This document shows, piece by piece, positions 1,721-23,143 of a stretch of 58,025 bases of DNA (position 1 is its first letter; every line of letters starts with the position of its first letter). The stretch is from NCBI GenBank assembly GCA_964440305.1, contig CAYTRS010000001.1, forward strand, positions 1-58,025. Direction: 5' to 3'. A program made the translations under genes and the position numbers. The notes below the pieces were generated by a model. The model had not been told where the DNA came from. It saw only the letters and a list, made by a program, of their open reading frames with translations, and did not search any database. Origin of the DNA: an uncultured Bdellovibrionales bacterium. GTDB taxonomy: Bacteria > Patescibacteriota > Minisyncoccia > Moranbacterales > JAKLHP01.

Positions 1721-4462
1721 ATGAAAAAAAATAGAAATAAAATAAAAAAAATAATATTGGCAGCTTTCCTTGTTTTTGAAGTCGCTTTTTTTAATTTTGG
1801 AATAAACGGAGTCGCAGCCGACCTTGCCGATATGGATCCGGATGATGCAGCCGAAGAAGCGGCCGAAGAGCTTGAAGGGCGCTATAACATAAACTTAGAA
1901 AGCACTAGGGATATAATGCAACAGATGAATGTTACCGGGAACAAGGCTCCCGTTCCGGAAGTGATGGTGACTTTTGAACCTTCCGACCCGAAACCGGGAG
2001 AAAAAGTCACTGCTCATGCTTCACCCATGTATTTCAGCAATCCTTCTGAAGAGCTCTATTACACTTGGTATTTTAAGCCAGCAGGAAGCCCTAGTAATGA
2101 AAATTGTGACAAAAAAATAGTAGAGCTGTATAAGGTTAATGCAATGCGCATAGTTGCTAATGGAGGATTTGATTATGGGCAAGTTGATTATGATGATTTT
2201 AAGGATATACTTTCCGATGACGATGGATATATGGCAACTTTCGGGGGTCATAATAAGTATGAAGGAAGTAACGGCCATTGTTACATCCATGATTTTGAAA
2301 CGGGGGAAAATTACGAATTATTTAAATGGACGTATGATTATGTTAAAGATCCTATGGTGGGAATTTATTGCAATAATGAGGGAAAAAAAGGCGTTTGCGC
2401 AAAAAACATAGGTGAGATTGAAGAAGAGAAGTGCGAAATGTATTCAGGCAAACCTTGTGAGAAAAATCCATTTTGCATATCGGAAAGATATTTTTCAGCT
2501 CCACGTTGCCCAAGTGGCTGGGAACCTTATTGTATGGATAAATCCTTTAGGCGTGAACAAATTATTGAGGGATCTTGTGAGGATTTAAGCAGTGGTATTC
2601 CGCACAGTTTAAATGATTGGGAATTTGACTATGACGAGTTAGGATGCAATCATCTTTTTCCAAAATCCTATGGCGCTACTGGTACTGGAGACGGAAGCTT
2701 TACTCTTGAAGAAGAAGAATTTTGGCAAACTAATCCAGGAGATTCTGATACGGCAGATAATGGAAACTTGGATGAAGCTAATGTGGTGGGTTTGGGACAG
2801 AGCTCTTTTACATGGAATTATCAGGATGGAGATGAAATAGGCGTGGTGGTTGAGGGAACTTCCATGATTCCGACCAAATATGACGATAGTACCTATATGG
2901 TGATGTGGGCTTTCCCCAAGAATGAATGCAAGCCGAAAAATACAGACATTCTTCAATTAGAAGAAAGGGATGATGAAAGCTGGCAGGTTGAAATTCCTAC
3001 TGCCCGGATGGATCTCGATGAATGCTTATGCGACAACTTCATTGATCCCAAGGAAAAAAATTTTCAGAAGCTTGAAGTCACGCTTTCCTATTCTCCCGAC
3101 AATCCGATTAATGATCCCTCTGAAGGTAATTCCGGAGACACGCTCTCTGTACAATCCTCACTGGCTAGCGGAGAAGTGGATTTCTCTTCTCTCAATTATG
3201 ACTGGCAAGTTCAAATAGGAAATGGACCTGATTTTATCGGAGGATTTAAAACCATAACTGGTAAACTGATTGAGGCGGGGTTGATGGAAAGTAGTCAGGG
3301 GAACGGGCTGGATTCCCTTTCTGTTCAACTTAATTTAAACAGCACTAATATAGGAGAGAGCAATTATAAAAACTATCTTAGCGATGGAGAAGCTTACCTC
3401 AAGATAAAGCTAGAAGTGACTGATCCTATAACCGTCCGTAGCGGAAAAAGCGACGTAATTGTGAAGATCATCTCCACTGATGAAAAAATACAAGCGCATA
3501 AAGTTAAAGTAGGAGATGATGGAAAATTGTCATTTGATGATGATATTTGCACTGGCGAGGAAGAAGGAGAGGAAGGAGCTCTTGAAAGGCAAATATGTTT
3601 TGTCGCAAACAACGATATTATCGGGGTGGATTTTCCAGATGGTGATTATTCTAATTTCTCATGGACTTTAGACGGAAAACCGCTTGTCTGCGATGATTCG
3701 ATTTCTTCCGGCTGTTCAACTGCCAATTCAAATGCCAATTTCTTTCCGGTTTCCGGAGAAGCCGGAAAAACTTACACGGTTGGATTGACAGCTACTGAAG
3801 AAGGAGATGCAGATGAAGCAAAAAATACCATCCAGCTTAGCAGAATTTTCAAAATAGTTGAGCCTTACGTTGAAATTGTTTCAAATGACGAGGTTGATAA
3901 AGATTCTATCTGGCGTAGATATTTGGGAAAATACATAACCTTATCGGGAGAATCAAAGGATGATTTCAGTGAAAATGTCTTTGAGGCTTATTCTTACAGC
4001 AATATTGCTCTCAAAGCCAAATTCCATCCTTTCTGGGTGGAGGACAGCTATTCCAATATGAGTTGGTGGCTAAACGGAATAAAAGAAAAGGAGGGGGCAG
4101 AAGATCCTACGGCATTTAATTTTGAAGCTGCGGGGCTTCCCGGGGATTCTTTCAACGTTGCCTTTAATGCGTTTTATGATTATTCGGAAGAAAGGCAAAA
4201 AATCAGAAAAGCCCTGTATGACATTTGGAAAATTTCCAGCTTTGATTCCGCTTCGCAAGGAAATCTTTCTTCCGCAATTCAGATTGAGTTGGTGGAGCCG
4301 GAAAGGATTGCAAAGGCTAATCAGGCAAAGAAATGGGTGGCGGCCATCTTTTCCAATACTCCCAGCAACATATTTTTCATGATCAGGACGGTGCTGACAA
4401 TTTTTCTGGTTCTTGCCGGAAGCTTTCTTGTTTCATCATTAAGACCGGGTAATATTTTATGA
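1721..4462 (+). CDS. Large (913 aa) secreted Cys-rich protein with C-terminal membrane anchor, function unknown
   Basis: N-terminal signal/TM (ILAAFLVFEVAFF), many Cys, and repeated beta-sandwich-like segments ending in Y.W motifs. C-terminal TM (IFFMIRTVLTIFLVLAGSFLV). ATGA overlap with the next gene. Confidence 0.6.
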   Translation: MKKNRNKIKKIILAAFLVFEVAFFNFGINGVAADLADMDPDDAAEEAAEELEGRYNINLESTRDIMQQMNVTGNKAPVPEVMVTFEPSDPKPGEKVTAHASPMYFSNPSEELYYTWYFKPAGSPSNENCDKKIVELYKVNAMRIVANGGFDYGQVDYDDFKDILSDDDGYMATFGGHNKYEGSNGHCYIHDFETGENYELFKWTYDYVKDPMVGIYCNNEGKKGVCAKNIGEIEEEKCEMYSGKPCEKNPFCISERYFSAPRCPSGWEPYCMDKSFRREQIIEGSCEDLSSGIPHSLNDWEFDYDELGCNHLFPKSYGATGTGDGSFTLEEEEFWQTNPGDSDTADNGNLDEANVVGLGQSSFTWNYQDGDEIGVVVEGTSMIPTKYDDSTYMVMWAFPKNECKPKNTDILQLEERDDESWQVEIPTARMDLDECLCDNFIDPKEKNFQKLEVTLSYSPDNPINDPSEGNSGDTLSVQSSLASGEVDFSSLNYDWQVQIGNGPDFIGGFKTITGKLIEAGLMESSQGNGLDSLSVQLNLNSTNIGESNYKNYLSDGEAYLKIKLEVTDPITVRSGKSDVIVKIISTDEKIQAHKVKVGDDGKLSFDDDICTGEEEGEEGALERQICFVANNDIIGVDFPDGDYSNFSWTLDGKPLVCDDSISSGCSTANSNANFFPVSGEAGKTYTVGLTATEEGDADEAKNTIQLSRIFKIVEPYVEIVSNDEVDKDSIWRRYLGKYITLSGESKDDFSENVFEAYSYSNIALKAKFHPFWVEDSYSNMSWWLNGIKEKEGAEDPTAFNFEAAGLPGDSFNVAFNAFYDYSEERQKIRKALYDIWKISSFDSASQGNLSSAIQIELVEPERIAKANQAKKWVAAIFSNTPSNIFFMIRTVLTIFLVLAGSFLVSSLRPGNIL

Positions 4463-5488: not shown

Positions 5489-6655
5489 ATGAACATAATT
5501 AAGCGAATTTTTATTATATCTTCCGTTTTGCTGGCGATGGTGCTTTTTTTTATGGGCATTTATAACCTTTCTTTTAAAAAAGAGGACAATTCTGAAAAAC
5601 AGGAGAAGTTGGGAAATGTTGCGGAGGAAATGGGAAAACCGGAAAAAGAGAACAATTTCTCGCAGAATATTTCCAAGGAAAAAATATACGCGCTGACAGA
5701 CGAAGAAGTGATTGCCCCGGTTTTTGACAAAGAATCGGACAAAGTCGTTTATTATTCCGCTTCCGATGGAAAGGTTTATTCCGTGGAATATTTTAGCGGA
5801 GAAAAAAAAATAATTTCAGGGGATTCACTGGATAGCTTGAAAGATGTTTCCTGGTCTCCAAATAGGAAAAAGGTTATTTCAAAGTTCAATGTTGACGGGA
5901 AGAACACTTTTTATTCATACGACCATGAGAAAAAAATCGGGAAAAAATTGAATGACGGAGTGGATATTGTTTCCTGGTCTAACCTCGGGGACAAGATAAT
6001 TTACAAATTTTACGACAGTGAAAAAAAAGAGCGGTCGCTCAGAACTTGCGATCCGGACGGAAGCAATGAAAACAAGCTGGCGGTTACTCCTTTTAAAATG
6101 CTTAATTTCACTCAAATACCACAGAAGACGGACATTGCTTTTTGGAATTATCCGGATGCGCTTTCAGAAACAAAACTTTCCAGAATAAGCATTGCCGGGG
6201 GAAAAGAAAGTGTTATCTTTTCCGGAAAATACGGAGCGGATTATCTTTGGTCGCCAAGCGGAGATAAAGCTTTGGTAAGTTCTCTGGAAAGCAAGGGAAG
6301 CTCAAAAATGATGCTGGGGCTGATCAATGAAAACGGCGGAGAATACCAAAACCTGGGAATACCCACTTTTGCATCCAAATGCGCATGGTCAAGGGACGGA
6401 AAAGTCGTTTATTATGCGCTTCCCGGATCGCTCTCGGAAGAAAACGTTCTTCCGAACGACTATCAGGATAAAAAAATAATAACCAAAGACACTTTCTGGA
6501 AATTAGATCTCGCTACCGGAAAAAAAGACAGGCTTATTGAACTTTCAGAAATAAAAGAAAGCTATGATGCCGATAAGATGTTCTTGTCAGCGTCGGAAGA
6601 CAGGCTATTTTTTGTAAATCGCCATGACGGAAAATTATACGCGATAAAAATCTAG
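5489..6655 (+). CDS. PD40/TolB-like beta-propeller repeat protein, membrane-anchored
   Basis: Signal anchor (IFIISSVLLAMVLFFMGIY). Repeated WSP(N/S)..K, WSNLGDKIIY, DPDGSNENKL and WSRDGKVVYY blocks typical of PD40 repeats. Start moved to the internal ATG at 5489, after the upstream stop. Confidence 0.6.
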   Translation: MNIIKRIFIISSVLLAMVLFFMGIYNLSFKKEDNSEKQEKLGNVAEEMGKPEKENNFSQNISKEKIYALTDEEVIAPVFDKESDKVVYYSASDGKVYSVEYFSGEKKIISGDSLDSLKDVSWSPNRKKVISKFNVDGKNTFYSYDHEKKIGKKLNDGVDIVSWSNLGDKIIYKFYDSEKKERSLRTCDPDGSNENKLAVTPFKMLNFTQIPQKTDIAFWNYPDALSETKLSRISIAGGKESVIFSGKYGADYLWSPSGDKALVSSLESKGSSKMMLGLINENGGEYQNLGIPTFASKCAWSRDGKVVYYALPGSLSEENVLPNDYQDKKIITKDTFWKLDLATGKKDRLIELSEIKESYDADKMFLSASEDRLFFVNRHDGKLYAIKI

Positions 6656-14029: not shown

Positions 14030-14164
14030 TTATGCCGACAGCTTCTTTCTTCCTTTTCTTCTCCGCGAGGCGATAACCTTCTTTCCGCCCTTGGTGCTCA
14101 TTCTTTTTTTGAATCCGTGCCTTCTTTTGCGTTTTATTTTCTTCGGCTGATATGTTCTTTTCAT
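14030..14164 (-). CDS. rpmH: 50S ribosomal protein L34
   Basis: Not in the ORF track (44 aa). The reverse complement translates to [44 protein letters not shown], a near-consensus L34. Confidence 0.9.
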
Positions 14165-14280
14165 TTTATCCTGCTAAATAAGATTTGAGACGCTTCTTTT
14201 ACGTCCAAACCTATCAAAATTAGTTGTTAATCTAGTTAAAAGTCTAACAGCAATGAAAGAAAAGGTCAACTTTTAGTGGA

Positions 14281-14390
14281 AATTATTCTAATTAGTCTAA
14301 TTGACCTAATTAATCTAAAGTATTGGTAATTAGCTATTGAGATTTTTTTAGAATAACTAGAGTAATTAAGAATAATTAGGTTAATTTACA
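14281..14390. repeat. TAATT-word array in the AT-rich rpmH-proximal spacer
   Basis: At least 7 copies of (C/G)TAATT(A/G) within 110 bp: tctaattag, tctaattga, cctaattaa, ggtaattag, gtaattaag, ataattagg, ttaatttac. Confidence 0.6.
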
Positions 14391-14463
14391 AGTAGTTTTT
14401 CCCTTATTTCTGCCGTTTTTGGAACAGTTTCCTTTATTTAAGCCAAAAAGAGACATTTTCAGG

Positions 14464-14492
14464 TTGACAAAACTGAAATTTTTTGCTAGAAT
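14464..14492 (+). promoter_or_regulatory. Near-consensus sigma70-type promoter (TTGACA-17-TGcTAGAAT)
   Basis: TTGACA at 14464-14469, a 17-nt spacer, and an extended -10 tgcTAGAAT at 14487-14492, about 80 nt upstream of the 14574 ORF. Confidence 0.6.
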
Positions 14493-14573
14493 GCAGTGTT
14501 CAGAAAGGATAGAAAGGAGCTGGGTGATTGGCTCTTTGAAAAATTATAAATTCTTTTAGGAAAGGAGTATGAA

Positions 14574-15275
14574 ATGGGCGTAAAAAGTTTCGTAATGGGA
14601 TTTGCTGGGGATATGGGCAAGGAGATTTTAGGAGAACTTTTTGGAGCCAATCTCCTCAAGAACATGATGGCAAAAGTCATGAAGGGGAAAAGTACAATAG
14701 GAGTAAAAGTTAATGAAGCGAAAGAATTACTTCCTGAGATGAAGCAATCGGACCTAGTTCACATGTCCGATGAGATTGCTTTTTTTAATCTAATTGGGAA
14801 GATGGAGCAGAATCCAGAACTAAAGGGTTCCGCGCTTAACACATCGGTTTTTATAAACAATTACCTGAAGGAAGCTTGGCAAAAACAAAACTTCAGGGTT
14901 GTAATGGGAGCCCTTGCTGGAATTGAATATGATGTTCATGGAGGAGAGACTCAAAGGGAGAAAATACCTCGTAAGGGGAAGTCTCCGATTGAAAGGGAAA
15001 AAATTACTCCTCCCAAAAAAGTAAATCTGGGCGTGCAGGTTATGAAGAGCTTTGCGGCTCTAAACTCAGATGAAGAAAGATTGGAGGTGTGCAAAGCTTC
15101 GGGAATTATGGAGCCTACGATAGGTATTAAAATCCGGGAAATCTTAAAGGAACACCCGGAGGTAGCAACAGAGGCGGTAAAGAAAATCAGAAGGGAAATC
15201 CAGAAAAAACCTTACAAAGGTTTTTGGAGAGAACTTCTAAGGTTGCCTGCCAAGAAAAATCAAACTAATGATTAG
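14574..15275 (+). CDS. Hypothetical soluble protein (233 aa), no recognisable family
   Basis: Long ORF with a strong SD (aaGGAGtatgaaATG). No TM segments and no motif I recognise. Its stop overlaps the SD of the next gene (gatTAGGAGGtcaaaATG). Confidence 0.6.
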   Translation: MGVKSFVMGFAGDMGKEILGELFGANLLKNMMAKVMKGKSTIGVKVNEAKELLPEMKQSDLVHMSDEIAFFNLIGKMEQNPELKGSALNTSVFINNYLKEAWQKQNFRVVMGALAGIEYDVHGGETQREKIPRKGKSPIEREKITPPKKVNLGVQVMKSFAALNSDEERLEVCKASGIMEPTIGIKIREILKEHPEVATEAVKKIRREIQKKPYKGFWRELLRLPAKKNQTND

Positions 15276-15284
15276 GAGGTCAAA

Positions 15285-16421
15285 ATGGATAATTTTCTAA
15301 ATTTGATTCTGGAAACGCTTGGATTGGCAGATGACTCTTTGGATGAAGCGCGTAGTTTTCATGCTAGAGTTATTGCAACTCTGATAATATTAGTAGGTAT
15401 CCTTGTGCTAATTGGATACTGTTTTCACCGGATAGGGTTCGGAAGTATAAACATTATAATCGGGCTTCTGTTGGATTTTGCTGCATTAATAGCTTTCCTC
15501 AGGCCGGAGCCTTTGCTTATCTTCTTGGGACTAGGAACTTTCCTAGGAATAATGAAGACTCCCGAAACAATAAGCCAAGAAACAAGAGATGTTTTTTCTT
15601 GGTATGCTAATGCGTGCGGAAATTTCCTGTTGATTTCGTCCATAATCTTCATGTTTTTGGGAACATGGCCGTGGGTAATAGGATTTGGGAATTTTCTTGT
15701 AATATGCTTAAGTCTTTTAACTCTTGTGTTGATGTCCACGTTGTGGAAAAAAAGCGGAAGGTTTGGGAAAACCTTTGCATATGCGTATACCATTTTAATT
15801 TTGGTTGTATTCGTGTTCTGGACATCAGCTCCAGATGCGGCGAAGGCAAAAATTTTCGGTCCTGATTTTCCGAGAGAATTTGTTTCTGAAGAGGAAATAG
15901 TTCTTGAGGAGATTAATGGGGAAAAAAGAGAGCTTGAAAAAAGAAAGACTGTCGAACAACTTGAAAAAATAAAGCATAAAGTTCAAGACGGTCAAAAGCT
16001 TTCAAGGGAAGAGGAAATTTTTCTTAAGAAAGCTCAGGAAAAGCAGGATAAGGAAACAATTCCGGCAAAGATTTCTTCCTTGATTCCAAAGTCAGGGGAG
16101 TCAAAAAATGAAGCTCCTTTACATTCAGAAAAAGAAATTATTATTTCTCAAAATTCTCGAGTCGGAACGTTAGAAATTGAGAATTTGGGTAAAATTAAGG
16201 TTTGGACAGAATTTCGGGGTGACGAGCTATTTATGAAAAGCATAGAACGTTCTGTATTTTTCTCTGCTAATCGTGAAAAAAGTGGATGCTTTTATGGAAA
16301 TTGGAAGGAAGAAGGTAGGGAAGGAGGCCTTTTTCATCTTCAGGGAGATCCTGAGGGAAAGGAAATGAAAGGAGGAATAAGAACCTCCAAGGGATATGTT
16401 TCTCTGAAACTAATTTTTTGA
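15285..16421 (+). CDS. Hypothetical membrane protein (378 aa): about 6 TM N-domain, charged coiled-coil linker, beta-rich C-domain
   Basis: TM segments within residues ~30-190, an EEEIVLEEINGEKRELEKRKTVEQLEKIKHK linker, and a C-terminal ~100-aa domain. Strong AGGAGG SD. Confidence 0.6.
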   Translation: MDNFLNLILETLGLADDSLDEARSFHARVIATLIILVGILVLIGYCFHRIGFGSINIIIGLLLDFAALIAFLRPEPLLIFLGLGTFLGIMKTPETISQETRDVFSWYANACGNFLLISSIIFMFLGTWPWVIGFGNFLVICLSLLTLVLMSTLWKKSGRFGKTFAYAYTILILVVFVFWTSAPDAAKAKIFGPDFPREFVSEEEIVLEEINGEKRELEKRKTVEQLEKIKHKVQDGQKLSREEEIFLKKAQEKQDKETIPAKISSLIPKSGESKNEAPLHSEKEIIISQNSRVGTLEIENLGKIKVWTEFRGDELFMKSIERSVFFSANREKSGCFYGNWKEEGREGGLFHLQGDPEGKEMKGGIRTSKGYVSLKLIF

Positions 16422-16436
16422 GAAAGGAGGAAAAGT

Positions 16437-16472
16437 AAGCCGGTTTAGTGAAAATTCACTAAGCCGGTTTTT
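16437..16472 (+). terminator. Rho-independent terminator of the 14574-16421 operon
   Basis: aagccggtttagtgaa/ttcactaagccggttt forms a ~16-bp stem (two G.U pairs) followed by a T-run. Confidence 0.6.
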
Positions 16473-16543
16473 CATACTTGCGTAATTCAACATCATTATT
16501 CATAATTCATATACAGAGACTTTGGCATTAGAAGAAATTAACA

Positions 16544-16630
16544 GGAAGAGTGGCCGAGTGGTTGAAGGCGCGGCTCTCGAAAAGCCGTAAGGCAGAAATG
16601 TCTTCGGGGGTTCAAATCCCTCCTCTTCCG
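16544..16630 (+). tRNA. tRNA-Ser (anticodon CGA)
   Basis: Acceptor GGAAGAG/CTCTTCC, anticodon stem CGGCT/AGCCG with loop CU-CGA-AA, a long variable arm (aaggcaGAAAtgtctt), T-loop GGGGGTTCAAATCCCTC, discriminator G. CCA is not encoded. Confidence 0.85.
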
Positions 16631-16794
16631 CAATTAAAATTTAGCATGTTCGAATCTTTACCCCATTGAATGACGGGGTTTCTGCCTCCGCCGATTTATT
16701 AGTAGATACTTTTAATTTAAATTCAATTGAATTATTAATTGATTGATTTTGTCATTTTTTGTTTTTGGTGTAAAATTATATAAACGACGCTAAT

Positions 16795-16881
16795 CCGCGA
16801 ATGTATGCGAATGACACGAATGGTATTTGATTTTAAATATTTGTGGCATTCATGTGTAATTCGTAGTTTCGTATCGCTATT
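16795..16881 (+). repeat. CATTCG-word hairpin module (copy E) abutting a start codon
   Basis: cgcgaatgtatgcgaatgacacgaatg ... cattcatgtgtaattcgtagtttcgtatcgctatt|ATG. Inverted CGAATG/CATTCG arms. Ends in the shared TCGCTAT(T) box immediately 5' of ATG 16882. Confidence 0.7.
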
Positions 16882-17421
16882 ATGAATTTAAACGCTAAAT
16901 TTTTGGATCCGGAATCTGTTTTGAAAGAGGTGGAAATAAAGTCGGGAATCTCGGTTGCCGATTTTGGTTGCGGTTCGGGATATTTTTCTTTGGCTCTGGC
17001 GCAAAAAGTCGGGCAAGACGGAAAAGTATTTGCTTTGGATGTTCTGCCGCAATCTTTGGAATCAGTGGAAAGCCGGGCGAAAATTCAAGGAACTACCAAT
17101 ATCATCACCAAAAGGGTGAATCTGGAAAATGAGGAGGGTTCCGATCTTCCCAGAGAGAGTTTGGATTTGGTGATAATAAAAGACGTTCTGTTTCAAAATG
17201 GGAACAAGAAGGCGATTTTAAAAGAAGCTTTTCGGGTTTTGAAGCCGGGAGGCCAGGCAGTGATTGTGGAATGGAATGACGGAGAATATTCCATCGGTCC
17301 GGACAAAAAACTCCGAATTTCAATGGAAGATCTTAAAAAAGAAGTTCAGGAGCAGAATTTTTTGATTGAAAAGACTTTTTCTGCCGGAGATTTCCACTAT
17401 GGAATCGTAGCGGGAAAATAA
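16882..17421 (+). CDS. Class I SAM-dependent methyltransferase
   Basis: Motif I VADFGCGSGYFS, post-I FALDV, and a Methyltransf_11-like layout. Confidence 0.75.
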   Translation: MNLNAKFLDPESVLKEVEIKSGISVADFGCGSGYFSLALAQKVGQDGKVFALDVLPQSLESVESRAKIQGTTNIITKRVNLENEEGSDLPRESLDLVIIKDVLFQNGNKKAILKEAFRVLKPGGQAVIVEWNDGEYSIGPDKKLRISMEDLKKEVQEQNFLIEKTFSAGDFHYGIVAGK

Positions 17422-17531: not shown

Positions 17532-18944
17532 ATGAAAATAAAAACCATATCAATAATTGTTATTGTGGCATTCTCCTCCTTTCTTTTTTCTGGATGCTTT
17601 AAAAGCAAGGATCAGGGATACAAGGTCAATTTGGAAATCTGGGGAGCTTTTGATGACAGCGGAACTTTTTCCGAAGCTATCAATGAGTATAGGAAAATAA
17701 ATCCGTATGTCGGTGAGATAAAATACAGGAAACTAACCGTTGATTCTTACAAGAAAGAAGTTATTGACACAATGGCTTCCGGCCAGGGTCCGGATATTTT
17801 TCTGATTCACAATACCTGGCTTCCTTCTTTCAAGGACAAGACAGAGCCTTCTCCTGACTGGATAACAACGGAGCAGGAATTCAGAAATAACTTTGTTGAC
17901 GTAGCGGCGGATGATTTTCTGGATGGAGGAAAAATTTATGCCGTTCCCTTAAGCGTAGATTCACTGGCGCTTTATTACAATAAGGATTTGTTTAATGCGG
18001 CAGGAATAGTCAATCCTCCGTCGACTTGGGAAGAGTTTAATGCCGCTTCCAAAGCGCTTACCAAAATAGGTCCCAATGGGCAAATTATTCAAGCGGGAGC
18101 GGCACTCGGAACTGCCTACAATATTAATCGCTCAACTGATGTTCTGGGCCTGCTGATGTTTCAGAACGGGGTGCAAATGGCAAACAGGGATAAGTTAGAA
18201 GCAACTTTTGACAAGGCTGTTTCCGGTGCGGAAAATTTGCAATATACAAGATCGGGAGAAAACGCCTTGAATTATTATACCCAATTTGCTTCTTCGGGAG
18301 CGATGTATTGCTGGAATCCGACGATGCATTATTCCATAGACGCTTTTTATGAAAATACAGTGGCAATGATGATTAACTATTCCTGGCACTACCAAACCAT
18401 CAAAGCGAAAAATTCCAAGCTAAATTTTGCGGTTGCTCCTGTTCCCCAGCTTTCCAAAGATAACCCGATAAATTATGCGAACTATTGGGGATTTGCGGTT
18501 TCCAAAAATAAAAGTGCAAGCTTGCAGGACGACAGAAAAGAAAAATCCGCCTATGACGAAGAAACCATGAGGAAAGTTCGAATTCATGAATCATGGCAGT
18601 TTTTGAAATTCCTCACGATGAAAAACGGGGGAAAAATAACTCTGCGCAACGGAATTACCGGAAATACGAAAGATTTTCCGATTTCCATAGATCCGGCAAA
18701 AAAATATTCCGAGGAAACCGGAAAGCCGGCAGGCAGACGTGATATAATAGCAGGGCAAAAAGACAGTCCCGTTTTGGGTCCGTTTGCTTATGGGAACCTG
18801 ATAGCCAAAAGCTGGTATCAAAAAGATCCGGAAGCGACGGAGGTAATTCTGGCAGATATGATTGATTCGGTGAATAGGGGAAGATTGAGCTCTTATGAAG
18901 CGCTGAAGCTTGCGGCAAACCGGGTGACGAATTTGATGAGGTAA
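17532..18944 (+). CDS. Extracellular solute-binding lipoprotein (ABC-type, sugar-binding family 1-like)
   Basis: Lipobox LFSGC. GPDIFLIHNTWLPSF, YAVPLSVDSLALYYNKDLF and WEEF are motifs typical of SBP_bac_1. No permease or ATPase genes adjacent. Confidence 0.75.
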   Translation: MKIKTISIIVIVAFSSFLFSGCFKSKDQGYKVNLEIWGAFDDSGTFSEAINEYRKINPYVGEIKYRKLTVDSYKKEVIDTMASGQGPDIFLIHNTWLPSFKDKTEPSPDWITTEQEFRNNFVDVAADDFLDGGKIYAVPLSVDSLALYYNKDLFNAAGIVNPPSTWEEFNAASKALTKIGPNGQIIQAGAALGTAYNINRSTDVLGLLMFQNGVQMANRDKLEATFDKAVSGAENLQYTRSGENALNYYTQFASSGAMYCWNPTMHYSIDAFYENTVAMMINYSWHYQTIKAKNSKLNFAVAPVPQLSKDNPINYANYWGFAVSKNKSASLQDDRKEKSAYDEETMRKVRIHESWQFLKFLTMKNGGKITLRNGITGNTKDFPISIDPAKKYSEETGKPAGRRDIIAGQKDSPVLGPFAYGNLIAKSWYQKDPEATEVILADMIDSVNRGRLSSYEALKLAANRVTNLMR

Positions 18945-18954
18945 ACAGCGACAC

Positions 18955-19030
18955 CAATCCACGAATGCATGCGAATGCTACGAATATTTCGTGTCATTCG
19001 TGTGTAATTCGTATTATTTGCATCGCTTAT
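18955..19030 (+). repeat. CATTCG-word hairpin module (copy F) abutting a start codon
   Basis: ccacgaatgcatgcgaatgctacgaatatttcgtgtcattcgtgtgtaattcgtattatttgcatcgcttat|ATG. Imperfect ~24-nt inverted arms. Confidence 0.7.
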
Positions 19031-20038
19031 ATGAAAATAAATATAAAAATCGGTTTAATAATTTTTCTGTTTTCCTTTTTTGGTTTTGTTGAAATCAACA
19101 AAGTCAATGCGGCTGCAGGATTGGGAGATGCATGCAGCGCTTTATCTGGAGGAGTTACTTGTGATTCAGGATTGACTTGTGTTGATTGCCCATATATGAA
19201 CTGCGCTTTTCCCAAATGGTGCCAGACAGTTGCGGGATGGCCGGATTATTTTCCTAAAGATAAAAATGGACTTAAGGAATGTTCAGTCGTTGCTGATTGT
19301 GTTAGCACTTTTGATTATTTGTTGTGTATGCCTTGTGAAAAAATGAGTGCATTCGCGTGTGCATCCGGAGGATTATGTGTGAGCAGTAGTATGCCTACAG
19401 CACTATTTAATGAATACATAGAAAGAGTTTCCGAATCCGATCCTTCTGTTGATGAGGAGGGTGACGACCCTTCTGTAGACGAAGAAGATGATAGTGACGG
19501 TGCCATCACCCCAACCGCTTTTACCAACCCTCTCGATTTCTCTACCGTAGAAGGTTTCCTTGCCAGCGTCCTCAATAGCCTTAGAACCATCATCGCCATC
19601 CTCGCCATCATATTTATGATTATCGGAGGAATCCTCTATATCACCTCCGTCGGAAACGAAAAGCAGATTACCACCGCCAAACACGCCATGACCTATGCCA
19701 TGGTCGGTCTGGCCATCGGAGTAGCCGCCCCCTCCTTCCTCAAAGAAATAGCTACTATCCTTGAATGGGGCGCTACCGATGAGGAATTGACGGGAGAATT
19801 GACAAAAGCCCTCACTCTTGCCGAAATCGGCCTTAACGTCCTCAACTTCCTCCTTTCCATCGTCGGAGTGCTGGCTCTCATTATGATGGTAGTCGGAGGA
19901 ATAATGTATTTTACCGCTGCCGCCGACGAAAAACAGGTGGAAACCGCCAAAAAGATATTCAAATACGCCATCTATGGAATCACCATTTCCCTAGCTTCAC
20001 TTCTAATTGTGAAACAAATTGGGAGTTTATTGGTGTAG
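19031..20038 (+). CDS. Cys-rich head + acidic linker + two tandem VirB2-like 'T4SS pilin' domains
   Basis: Signal peptide, ~95-aa region with ~14 Cys, and a 9-aa tandem repeat DPSVDEEGD/DPSVDEEDD. Two copies of the pilin pattern follow (IIGGILYITSVGNEKQITTAKHAMTYAMVGLAIG and VVGGIMYFTAAADEKQVETAKKIFKYAIYGITIS). Start set at ATG 19031, not 18965, because the upstream ORF part reads through repeat F. Confidence 0.65.
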   Translation: MKINIKIGLIIFLFSFFGFVEINKVNAAAGLGDACSALSGGVTCDSGLTCVDCPYMNCAFPKWCQTVAGWPDYFPKDKNGLKECSVVADCVSTFDYLLCMPCEKMSAFACASGGLCVSSSMPTALFNEYIERVSESDPSVDEEGDDPSVDEEDDSDGAITPTAFTNPLDFSTVEGFLASVLNSLRTIIAILAIIFMIIGGILYITSVGNEKQITTAKHAMTYAMVGLAIGVAAPSFLKEIATILEWGATDEELTGELTKALTLAEIGLNVLNFLLSIVGVLALIMMVVGGIMYFTAAADEKQVETAKKIFKYAIYGITISLASLLIVKQIGSLLV

Positions 20039-20094
20039 AATTATTAATTATAGTTTTGAAATTTGTAATTTGAGCTTTGAAATTTAATCTTATT

Positions 20095-20550
20095 ATGTTA
20101 TTTAATGTTCCCCAATATATTGACATAGAAGACAAGATTGTCGGTCCGCTGACTGCAAAGCAGCTTCTTTGGATGATTGGAATGGGAGGAACCCTCTTGG
20201 TTCTCTGGGCTATTTTGGAAAAAACTGCATTTTTTTTCTCCGCTATTCCGGTTATTTTAATTTTTGTCGCGCTGGCATTCTATCGGCCGCACAACCAGCC
20301 TCTGTCTAGATTTATCGGACTCGGGTTTGTTTATTTTCTGCATCCGAAAATATATTTTTGGAAAAGGGAAGCGGAAGAGCTGAAAAAGACTTCAGGAGAA
20401 GGAAAGAAAAAAGAAGCTCCGGGCGAGCAAGGCAAAAAAATATCCGCCGATGATCTGGAGGTTTTGGCAAGAACCTTGGACAGCGAAGGAAGGGAAAGGA
20501 GCGAAAGAGTGATGCAATTAATAAAAGAAAGAAGAAAAAAAAATAGTTAG
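20095..20550 (+). CDS. PrgI-family (VirB3-like) T4SS membrane protein
   Basis: N-terminus MLFNVPQYIDIEDKIVGPLTAKQLLWMIGMGG followed by two TM helices, which matches the PrgI-family signature. ATG 20095 preferred over TTG 20077. Confidence 0.7.
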   Translation: MLFNVPQYIDIEDKIVGPLTAKQLLWMIGMGGTLLVLWAILEKTAFFFSAIPVILIFVALAFYRPHNQPLSRFIGLGFVYFLHPKIYFWKREAEELKKTSGEGKKKEAPGEQGKKISADDLEVLARTLDSEGRERSERVMQLIKERRKKNS

Positions 20551-20627: not shown

Positions 20628-21323
20628 ATGGAATTTTTAAATCCGAAAAAAGCATCGGGAAAAAACGGAGGAGCCAGCACTCAAAAATATATTGATGTGG
20701 AAAAGGTGGAGGATGGAGCAATAGTGCTAAAAAACGGCGCCTTGCGGGCGGTCCTGCTTGTTTCCTCCATTAATTTTGATTTGAAGTCCACGGAAGAGCA
20801 GGACTCAATTATCGGCCAATATCAAGGGTTTTTGAACTCCCTGGACTTTCCGGTGGAGATTTTGATAAGCTCCAGAAAGCTTAATATTCAGCCGTACCTT
20901 GATTTTTTGGAAAGCAAAGAACGCCAGCAAACAAACGAGCTTTTGCGCCTTCAAATTTCCGAGTATCGGGGATTTATCAAAAATTTGACCGAGGTTTCGA
21001 ATATAATGTCAAAATCCTTTTATATCATCGTTCCTTTTTCTCCGATAGAAAGCAAAGAAGGGGGATTTTTTGAAAAGATTTCCTCGATTATGAATCCGAA
21101 GCAAGTGATTTCCCAAAAGAAAGAGCTCTTTGAAACCTACAAGAACCAGCTTTGGCAGAGAGTAGATCACATTTCCGAATCATTGAGCGGAATAGGGGTG
21201 AATATAGTTCCGCTTAAAACGGAAGAAGCAATAGAGCTGCTGTATAATTCATACAATCCGTCAACTTATACCAATTCAATAATCAAAAATATCCAAGACG
21301 TGGAATTAAAGAATAATTTTTAG
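20628..21323 (+). CDS. Hypothetical protein resembling the N-terminal domain of VirB4-type ATPases (no NTPase motifs)
   Basis: IDVEKVEDGAIVLKNGALRAVLLVSSINFDLKSTEEQDSIIGQYQGFLNSLDFPVEILI parallels IIAPSALRVSINHVQVGETVAKTFFVITYP...IINIDFPMNIAMFI in the next ORF. Alignment was done by eye only. Confidence 0.5.
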   Translation: MEFLNPKKASGKNGGASTQKYIDVEKVEDGAIVLKNGALRAVLLVSSINFDLKSTEEQDSIIGQYQGFLNSLDFPVEILISSRKLNIQPYLDFLESKERQQTNELLRLQISEYRGFIKNLTEVSNIMSKSFYIIVPFSPIESKEGGFFEKISSIMNPKQVISQKKELFETYKNQLWQRVDHISESLSGIGVNIVPLKTEEAIELLYNSYNPSTYTNSIIKNIQDVELKNNF

Positions 21324-21325
21324 TT

Positions 21326-23143
21326 ATGTTTAAATTCGGAAAAAAAGATAAAAAAGAGACGGCAGTAGAGCTTCTTGACAGCGAAAGACTGTATCAGGAA
21401 GGCCAAGCGACGGTGAAGGATATTATTGCTCCTTCCGCGTTGCGCGTGTCAATTAATCATGTTCAGGTTGGTGAAACAGTGGCAAAAACATTTTTCGTGA
21501 TAACCTATCCAAGGTATCTTCACTCCAATTGGTTCTCGCCGATTATTAATATTGATTTTCCGATGAACATTGCAATGTTCATCCATCCGATGGATAACGG
21601 AGAAATTCTCAAAAGCCTTCGCAAAAGCGCGACTCAAGTAGAATCGCGGATTCAAATGGAAGCGGAAAGCGGAAAAATCAGGGATCCTATTTTGGAAACC
21701 GCCATCAAAGACATTGAAGACCTTCGGGACAAATTGCAGCAGGGAACGGAAAGATTTTTCCATTTCGGGCTTTATATGACTGTTTATGGGCAGAGCTTGG
21801 AGGAAGTAAATAAGATAGGCCGACAAATTGAAGCGATACTTGAAGCCCAGTTGGTTTATGTGAAAGAATCAGTTTTGAAGTCCGAACAAGGCTTTGCTTC
21901 CACTCTTCCTTTAGCCAATGATCAGCTTAATATTGCCAATAATCTTAACACCTCTCCCTTGTCTACTACTTTTCCTTTCATTTCTTCCGATCTTTCTTCC
22001 AATGAAGGAATTCTTTATGGAATAAACAGGCACAATAACAGTTTGGTTCTTTTTGACCGGTTTAAAATGGAAAACGCCAATATGGTGGTTTTTGCCAAAT
22101 CCGGAGCCGGAAAAAGCTATACGGTAAAGCTGGAAGTCTTGCGCTCCATGATGATGGGAACAGAAGTCATCATCATTGATCCGGAAAATGAATATCGTTA
22201 TTTGGCGGAAACAGTCGGAGGAACATTTATTAAAGTTTCCCTAGATTCAAAATCGCACCTCAATCCGTTCGATCTTCCGAAAATTGGAGATGAGGAAAAC
22301 CCGGAAGATGTTATCCGTAACACCATTGCCGGTCTCATCGGACTGCTCCACTTGATGCTGGGATCGGTTACCCCTGAAGAAGATTCAATTTTGGACAGAG
22401 CAATTAGAGAGACATATAACCTTCGCGACATTACCCCAGAAAGCAATTTTAAAGCCTTTACTCCCAATTCTTTTCCGACAATGACGGATCTTTATGAAGT
22501 TTTGTCCAATATGGAGGGGGCGGAATCTCTCGCCCAAAGGCTGGAAAAATATACCGAAGGAATTTTTTCCGGATTTCTCAATCATCCATCCAATGTCAAA
22601 ATTGACAGTCAAATAGTTGTTTTTAATATCAGAGATCTGGAGGAGGAGCTTCGCCCAGTGGCGATGTATATCGTTCTTCAGTTTATTTGGAATGAAATGA
22701 GATCAGAAGTGAGAAAAAGGCTAGTGGTAGTGGATGAAGCCTGGGTGATGATGCAGAATGAAGATGCCGCCTCTTTCCTTTTCGGAATTGCCAAGAGATG
22801 CCGCAAATATTATACCGGACTCACGACAATCACTCAAGACATTGCTGATTTTATGGCATCCAGATATGGAAAGCCCATAGTTACCAACTCTTCTATGCAG
22901 CTCCTTTTGCGCCAATCCCCGGCGGCGATTGACACGATCGTGGAAACTTTTTACCTTACTGACCAGGAAAAATTTCTGCTTCTGGAAAGCAATGTCGGAG
23001 AGGGAATATTTTTTGCCGGTCCCAAACACGCAGCTATCAAAGTCATTGCTTCCTATAGCGAAGACCAGGTGATTACTTCCGATCCCAGGCAACTTATGGA
23101 AATAGAAGAGGCTAAAAAAGAATTCAATGAGGAAAATGGATAA
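21326..23143 (+). CDS. VirB4/TrsE/PrgJ-like T4SS ATPase
   Basis: Walker A VVFAKSGAGKSYTVK, Walker B RLVVVDEAWVMM, then TTITQDIADF and LLLRQ. The N-domain pattern 'I.P....V......VG......F.V..YP' is typical of the VirB4 family. Confidence 0.8.
   Translation: MFKFGKKDKKETAVELLDSERLYQEGQATVKDIIAPSALRVSINHVQVGETVAKTFFVITYPRYLHSNWFSPIINIDFPMNIAMFIHPMDNGEILKSLRKSATQVESRIQMEAESGKIRDPILETAIKDIEDLRDKLQQGTERFFHFGLYMTVYGQSLEEVNKIGRQIEAILEAQLVYVKESVLKSEQGFASTLPLANDQLNIANNLNTSPLSTTFPFISSDLSSNEGILYGINRHNNSLVLFDRFKMENANMVVFAKSGAGKSYTVKLEVLRSMMMGTEVIIIDPENEYRYLAETVGGTFIKVSLDSKSHLNPFDLPKIGDEENPEDVIRNTIAGLIGLLHLMLGSVTPEEDSILDRAIRETYNLRDITPESNFKAFTPNSFPTMTDLYEVLSNMEGAESLAQRLEKYTEGIFSGFLNHPSNVKIDSQIVVFNIRDLEEELRPVAMYIVLQFIWNEMRSEVRKRLVVVDEAWVMMQNEDAASFLFGIAKRCRKYYTGLTTITQDIADFMASRYGKPIVTNSSMQLLLRQSPAAIDTIVETFYLTDQEKFLLLESNVGEGIFFAGPKHAAIKVIASYSEDQVITSDPRQLMEIEEAKKEFNEENG

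Follow-up and report, generated by a model that had tools for sequence, protein, structure and literature searches.

What is a two-gene operon with near-perfect expression signals doing in a genome most of whose genes lack a Shine-Dalgarno (SD) sequence? The question is raised by a pair of genes, here called A and B, that lies between an rpmH-like gene and a tRNA-Ser gene in contig CAYTRS010000001.1 (the window, meaning the whole 58,025-nt stretch of DNA that was analysed), part of an 812-kb, 63-contig metagenome-assembled genome (MAG) of Candidatus Moranbacteria (Patescibacteria/candidate phyla radiation). As called from open reading frames (ORFs), gene A (14574–15275, + strand) encodes 233 aa and gene B (15285–16421, + strand) encodes 378 aa. 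The left flank is a 44-aa rpmH-like (L34-like) ORF (14030–14164, − strand), and tRNA-Ser(cga) (16544–16631, + strand) forms the right border of the slot that holds the cassette. An initial annotation, made from the sequence alone, had placed two ORFs between these flanks, where we also locate them, and had described a self-contained, coupled, membrane-associated unit of no recognised family; searches of Pfam, NCBIfam, PADLOC, and PHROGs with both proteins indeed gave nothing significant. On balance, we favour the interpretation that A and B form a polymorphic, order-restricted surface module that acts with the pilins of a type IV secretion system (T4SS) and has a cell-surface or host-contact role.

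The same annotation had considered the pair an orphan, which it is not. Word-indexed homology searches with A and B returned near-identical proteins only, and a six-frame search of relatives recovered a B homologue 35% identical in genome G017, preceded by an A-like ORF. A profile built from 12 B sequences found one copy each in 45 of 318 Moranbacterales species genomes, distributed over 22 of 106 genera, and a single partial extra match in a phylum-wide sample of 400 genomes. In a set of 1.84 billion representative proteins, the B profile matched 433 clusters at 50% identity with E ≤ 1e-3 (243 at E ≤ 1e-10). The A profile (19 sequences) identified A in 59 of the 318 species genomes. Both genes are present in 26 genomes, compared to approximately 8 expected if they occurred independently, and wherever both occur they are adjacent, typically beside pilin genes. 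A–B is a lineage-restricted operon of Candidatus Moranbacteria at the level of the order, and it is composed of two protein families that lack any annotation.

The small genes neighbouring the A–B loci belong to PF18895 (T4SS_pilin). B is followed directly by a convergent pilin-motif ORF at 22 of the 30 B loci, and at none is such an ORF found upstream of B; this layout, with A and B facing a pilin gene, recurs in at least five families of the order, and the same array is present on unrelated metagenome contigs. In the window, A and B are followed, all on the + strand, by tRNA-Ser, a methyltransferase (MTase; 16882–17421), a solute-binding protein (SBP; 17532–18944), a tandem T4SS_pilin gene (18965–20038), a PrgI/VirB3-like gene (20077–20550), a 231-aa ORF (20628–21323), and a VirB4-like ATPase (21326–23143), so that A–B lies 2.5 kb upstream of the pilin-PrgI-TrsD-VirB4 cluster. 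G017 contains the gene set of the window in rearranged form: MTase, SBP, and five pilins, then convergent B and A, then nusA. The MTase-SBP-pilin block adjoins A–B in G017 and A-type cassettes in G002 and G003, which represent a sister genus. There is a physical link between the module and the VirB2-like pilin genes of the T4SS of Patescibacteria.

A T4SS core and its position near rpmH/rnpA have already been published for Patescibacteria (PMC12102498; PMC12857230), and the same neighbourhood is found here, with T4SS_pilin, PrgI, a TrsD-like ORF, and VirB4 near rpmH/rnpA (PMC12102498). The pilin arrays of this system are described as sequence-variable, and in the one genetically tractable Patescibacterium species tested, growth on the host requires the T4SS with its pilin array (PMC12102498; Wang et al. 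2023, cited there and in PMC12857230). However, A and B are not among the components described in the accessible portions of these two papers; they match no T4SS profile, and they occur in only ~15–20% of Moranbacterales species.

The adjacency of A–B and pilins could also be the effect of a recombination hot spot instead of shared function. In that case A and B might be a general envelope pair, involved in wall anchoring or membrane organisation and unrelated to the T4SS, with the pilin region serving as a recombination-prone accessory slot. Such an explanation would account for the non-homologous cargo of the slot in different genomes, for the inversion of the tRNA-Ser segment between strains, for the two positions that the cassette takes relative to the pilins in the window and in G017, and for a peptidoglycan-binding domain in one B relative. 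It is harder to reconcile with the recurrence of one layout across families and unrelated metagenome contigs, and with the fact that the relocated cassette remained beside the pilin/T4SS block, and we regard it as unlikely.

Protein A is soluble, lacks a signal peptide, and belongs to an undescribed family with the conserved motifs L-s-DE-x-F, ERNRFR, and a C-terminal PYkGFW. The window protein and its G003 orthologue align with an hhalign probability of 98.6%. AlphaFold2 models a confident core (aa 63–190), for which Foldseek found no fold match in the PDB or BFVD; as the initial annotation had seen no recognisable motif in this soluble protein, so library and fold searches assign it to no family. 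Many A orthologues end in a single transmembrane (TM) anchor, which indicates that the bulk of A is cytoplasmic and located at the membrane.

For protein B, AlphaFold2 reproduces all of the parts that had been anticipated from the sequence, namely approximately six TM helices, a charged coiled coil, and a beta-rich C-domain. The model has a bundle of six hydrophobic helices (aa 16–191, nt 15330–15857), a 55-residue charged helix corresponding to the coiled coil (aa 202–258, nt 15888–16058), a low-confidence, disordered linker (aa 259–289), and an 8-strand beta-barrel (aa 290–378, nt 16152–16418), all encoded on the + strand. The hydrophobicity profile of 81 B relatives agrees with a polytopic protein of at least five TM helices. 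The C-terminal part is very variable or missing in relatives, and many members of the family lack the barrel or have something else in its place. Pfam searches of the 81 relatives gave one PG_binding_1 match and one weak fvmX2 match; in the former, PG_binding_1 comes straight after the coil, with no TM segment in between. Several relatives contain Pro/Ala/Thr-rich linkers, and among the short loops of the family the one preceding TM6 carries the most positive charge. The PG_binding_1 relative, the linkers, and this loop together suggest an outward-facing stalk and head, and the C-terminal barrel of B is probably extracellular.

The sole B-profile match outside the order (L082, G671:C36:790–1170) covers only the C-terminal beta-barrel (profile positions 270–408) and is part of a 331-aa open frame in a distant Patescibacteria family, suggesting that the head domain of B circulates independently of its membrane base.

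The best PDB match of the B C-domain in Foldseek is the beta-barrel of Cap15 (7n34; E = 4.6e-3, TM-score 0.52 on target), a TM effector of the cyclic oligonucleotide-based anti-phage signaling system (CBASS) in which TM segments likewise precede a small 8-strand beta-barrel. Based on this match, the operon might be an anti-phage defence or toxin-immunity cassette, B being a membrane-disrupting effector with a signal-sensing barrel and A its regulator or antidote; a hypervariable locus that is present or absent at a fixed slot, as well as self-contained strong expression signals, would be in keeping with such a role. However, the match is weak and generic, as de novo barrels, fatty acid-binding proteins, and GrlR fit equally well, and the barrel is not a constant feature of the family. 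The sensor barrel of Cap15 is cytoplasmic, whereas the C-terminal part of B probably lies outside the cell. PADLOC gave no match for A or B even at E ≤ 1, no gene for a cyclase, nuclease, or other sensor adjoins the pair, CBASS genes and a CD-NTase are missing from the neighbourhood of B, and the pair consistently occurs beside pilin genes. A defence or toxin cassette is accordingly an improbable description of this operon.

The position of B beside the pilins also invites comparison to the membrane platform of the secretion system. Like the extended VirB6, PrgH, and TcpH-type proteins, B is encoded next to T4SS genes and combines an N-terminal bundle of several TM helices with a large hydrophilic portion towards the C-terminus; with at least five TM helices and a C-proximal hydrophilic domain it recalls the 'extended VirB6' described in PMC12857230. 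B, which adjoins the pilins, could then be a divergent VirB6/TrbL-type platform for their assembly. In contrast to this expectation, B has no PF04610 match in Pfam, and the B family, compared by hhalign to 11 TrbL homologues from Moranbacterales, scored a probability of 0.8%. The genome also has its own TrbL homologue, on contig C4 (~nt 14–1880), which is 37–39% identical to the TrbL-positive proteins of relatives and is located beside another pilin array, and G017 carries both a TrbL homologue and B. The hhalign result and the separate TrbL homologue largely refute B as a VirB6 homologue, and we give the platform reading almost no weight.

Contig C4 (14–6862) carries a second T4SS-related locus of the same genome: the TrbL/VirB6 homologue (618 aa), a 425-aa ORF, a 129-aa four-helix-bundle-like ORF, and four pilin genes, followed directly by nusA. 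This pilin|nusA junction is an 'empty' version of the slot that holds A–B in other families.

Among close relatives, some carry the module, some lack it, and some have a replacement. At the same tRNA-Ser/MTase position, G002 and G003 have an A-family gene followed by a partner that is unrelated to B (hhalign <1%) and consists of TM helices and then beta-rich domains. We refer to such non-homologous membrane partners of A in other genomes as B2; Pfam searches of the B2 partners found nothing, and an impression of SH3-like domains was unsupported. In G004 the tRNA-Ser slot is empty, with nothing between tRNA-Ser and tRNA-Pro. The flanks (tRNA-Ser, MTase, SBP, and pilin) are shared by G002, G003, G004, and the window. 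The alternative pilin|nusA slot is occupied by a cassette in G017, G030, and others but holds none in G001–G004 or on contig C4. Other A-only genomes combine an SD-led A with a different SD-led membrane protein, at L122 and L130 beside a convergent pilin-like ORF. In this polymorphic module, a conserved cytoplasmic A, which in many cases has a tail anchor, is combined with an exchangeable membrane protein whose C-terminal domain is beta-rich.

At the G002 locus (L102, G002:C38), the B2-type partner is separated from tRNA-Ser by a third SD-led gene (3008–3730, 240 aa). Its product contains 'LEDESIF', a motif resembling that of A, and the gene may represent another, diverged paralogue of A.

Exchange at this locus is also apparent between strains. 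In a co-occurring sister strain represented in public metagenomes, the flanks are close to those of the window, with 99.5% identity for rnpA, 94% for the leader (14483–14552), and 96% for the MTase gene, and the ~2.1-kb A–B body between leader and tRNA is unalignable even at 80% identity. In another metagenome strain, A is ~96% and part of B ~87% identical. The locus is similar in these respects to replacement (flexible) genomic islands, hypervariable loci for envelope or surface features that occupy a fixed chromosomal slot between conserved genes, have alleles that are unalignable between strains with near-identical flanks, and carry non-homologous cargo or leave the site empty. It differs from them in that the exchange affects the membrane partner but spares A and the entire regulatory region, and in that the cargo is a two-gene protein module rather than glycosylation genes.

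Strong divergence between close strains, a membrane location with an exposed variable domain, and a place beside pilin/T4SS genes would all be expected of an entry (surface) exclusion or self/non-self recognition system for the T4SS, comparable to TraS/TraT or Eex, in which a variable membrane protein spares siblings. Known exclusion proteins are, however, small and encoded by single genes, our Pfam and Foldseek searches found no sequence or fold similarity to them, and most genomes that have pilins and a T4SS lack the module. Exclusion is thus a rather doubtful function for A–B.

The sister-strain contigs (17–39x) show further differences outside the two genes. The tRNA-Ser segment (16544–16745) is inverted, and 101 nt upstream of the MTase gene (16778–16878) are missing. 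Inverted repeats flanking the tRNA-Ser segment were sought as a cause of the inversion, and none were found; in G002 and G003, tRNA-Ser is likewise on the strand opposite the MTase gene. The same contigs skip 234 nt (14196–14429) of the AT-rich sequence that separates rpmH from the A promoter, so most of this spacer is dispensable or variable between strains.

The initial annotation had read the location beside a tRNA gene as a sign of horizontal acquisition. Presence and absence at the tRNA-Ser slot do vary, but a recent insertion does not follow from this: G002 and G003 have A-type cassettes at the same tRNA-Ser/MTase position, which makes the location old rather than the product of a recent tRNA-targeted event. 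Neither the GC content nor the codon usage of A and B stands out within the window, and recent horizontal transfer, as judged by composition, was rejected.

The expression signals had also appeared foreign, and here the orthologues give a different answer. A sigma-70 type promoter with an extended −10 element (TTGACA-N17-TGcTAGAAT, 14464–14492, + strand) precedes A; with a score of 11/12 plus TG it is the highest-scoring site of the region in a promoter scan and is as close to consensus as had been noted. The pattern TTGAC(a/t)-N17-TGnTAnnAT occurs 5' of A in 16 of 19 orthologous upstream regions, typically 75–118 nt before the ATG. The 5' leader of ~75 nt (14497–14573, + strand), whose 5' end is a transcription start site (TSS) predicted from the position of the −10 box only, includes a weak 5'-proximal hairpin, a second hairpin (~14514–14538), the conserved motif GGCTCTTTGAAAAATT (14530–14545), and the SD. 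In 14 of 15 leaders, a predicted hairpin begins no more than 1–2 nt from the inferred 5' end, with modest single-sequence z-scores (−1.1 to −2.6).

The leader motif, GGCnCyTTGAAAAyT, is nearly invariant in orthologous leaders (L052–L064 and L079; invariant columns in a 10-leader alignment). It is single-stranded and positioned directly 3' of a short GC hairpin, the arms of which vary compensatorily between genomes. An Rfam search of the leader region found nothing relevant. Attenuation, protein binding, or processing are possible roles of the motif. Its spacing does not fit a second promoter or a sigma-54 site, and a CsrA-type GGA site was rejected because the GGA repeats of the window leader are not found in orthologues. 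An 11-codon upstream ORF proposed at 14524–14559 (+ strand) is not supported, since its start codon and frame vary in orthologous leaders while the nucleotide motif at this place is kept; the differing frames rule out a conserved peptide.

Both genes have the strong SD sequences that were first noted for them. That of A, AAGGAG (14562–14567, + strand), is 6 nt before the ATG, and that of B, AGGAGG (15274–15279, + strand), overlaps the TAG stop of A, which is located nine nt before the B ATG; given this overlap, A and B are predicted to be translationally coupled. A strong SD is found before A in 9 of 10 orthologues checked, the tenth locus being too short to include the upstream region, and before B in 10 of 11, the exception being L015 at the start codon used. 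The housekeeping neighbours of these orthologues (clpP, tig, nusA, PPase, MTase, and SBP) have no SD. As had been proposed, SD sequences are rare around the locus: any 4-mer SD precedes 6 of the 50 window genes and 66 of the 760 genes of the genome, which is approximately the chance level, and AGGAG or GGAGG precedes 28 of the 760. The anti-SD is nevertheless intact, as four Moranbacterales 16S genes end in GGATCACCTCCTTTCT; it was read from relatives because the MAG itself contains no 16S rRNA, and it indicates that the ribosome could still use an SD.

Downstream of B, the strong 16-bp terminator of the initial annotation was recovered as an intrinsic terminator (16437–16477, + strand) with 16-nt arms (16437–16452 and 16455–16470) followed by UUUUU. 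Its hairpin folds with −24.4 kcal/mol (z = −5.7), and it is absent from the output of a simple terminator scan.

Orthologues in equally SD-poor genomes retain the promoter, 5' hairpin, leader motif, and both SDs, which argues that these signals are ancestral and not foreign. The module has, by these predictions, a conserved set of putative high-expression signals in an SD-poor genome, comprising an extended −10 promoter, a 5' hairpin, a leader motif, and two strong SDs. In Gram-positive bacteria, leaders with a 5' stem-loop and a strong SD stabilise mRNA, for example those of Bacillus subtilis aprE and cryIIIA (STAB-SD). The A–B leader is similar in its predicted extreme-5' hairpin and near-perfect SD but has in addition the conserved single-stranded yTTGAAAAyTT, which has no known counterpart. 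The 5' hairpin and strong SDs may be a device that would yield a stable, efficiently translated mRNA and high expression.

A conserved yet variable pair beside T4SS pilin genes is likely a cell-surface or host-contact module and not a foreign toxin or defence cassette. Among the roles initially suggested (defence, toxin/immunity, or host interaction), host interaction fits best, and no defence or toxin signature was found. According to the surface-module interpretation, B would be anchored in the cell membrane and would display its variable C-terminal domain outside on a coiled-coil stalk, while A would bind the cytoplasmic face of B or the membrane and would assemble, regulate, or couple B. 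A and B would contribute, alongside the pilin/T4SS apparatus, to cell-envelope or host-cell contact, and the variable head of B might set strain or partner specificity. The defence, entry-exclusion, and envelope-pair explanations each fit fewer of the observations than does this one.

Several points weigh against a surface module that acts with the pilins. The connection of A–B to the T4SS is one of gene neighbourhood only, and in the window A–B points in the same direction as the pilin gene, from which 2.5 kb separate it, whereas the usual layout is convergent. Approximately 80–85% of Moranbacterales species have no detectable A or B, and all of those examined have pilins, so the module is accessory. 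The outward placement of the C-terminal part of B depends on one domain fusion, charge counts leave the orientation of the B N-terminus ambiguous, and the predicted topology of B is tentative. The AlphaFold2 models of A and B are only moderate overall (predicted local distance difference test scores of 61–65), and function is inferred for a locus known from DNA runs alone.

An abundant, rapidly diversifying membrane module that is tied to pilins and predicted to be strongly expressed would be a concrete candidate for the step at which Patescibacteria cells recognise and hold a host. In a more specific and speculative form, which we put forward tentatively and with considerable reservation, A and its exchangeable partner would be the strain-specific partner-recognition determinants of the Moranbacteria T4SS-pilus, with a stalked, variable wall- or host-binding head, the conserved cytoplasmic A coupling it to secretion, and expression by a separate SD-dependent translation regime, whose private leader RNA motif would mark a small set of accessory genes in a genome that is otherwise SD-independent.

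The strong-SD genes, ~4% of the genome, form a class of mostly small hypothetical, secreted, or membrane proteins. Examples are found on the C10 minus strand near 6110 and at C36:63, C12:1680, C3:35394, and C26:3310. The consensus −35 box TTGAC(a/t) is enriched in this class (14/36 versus 57/695, p = 1e-6), as is GTTCTT, part of gTTCTTTGAAAAtt, at 12–75 nt before the start (7/36 versus 9/695, p = 3e-6); the GTTCTT/gTTCTTTGAAAAtt leader motif is common to the strong-SD class and the A–B operon. More than 90% of genes lack an SD despite an intact anti-SD, while a small accessory class keeps consensus promoters, a leader motif, and perfect SDs across genera. The existence of an SD-led accessory class in an SD-poor genome suggests two translation-initiation regimes in one cell.

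Finally, a perfect 15-nt inverted repeat is present within the operon, as AATCTCCTCAAGAAC and GTTCTTGAGGAGATT at 14649–14663 and 15900–15914. It joins the start of A to the start of the B coiled-coil region, 1.2 kb apart, and by a rough estimate its chance occurrence in 2.9 kb is unlikely.

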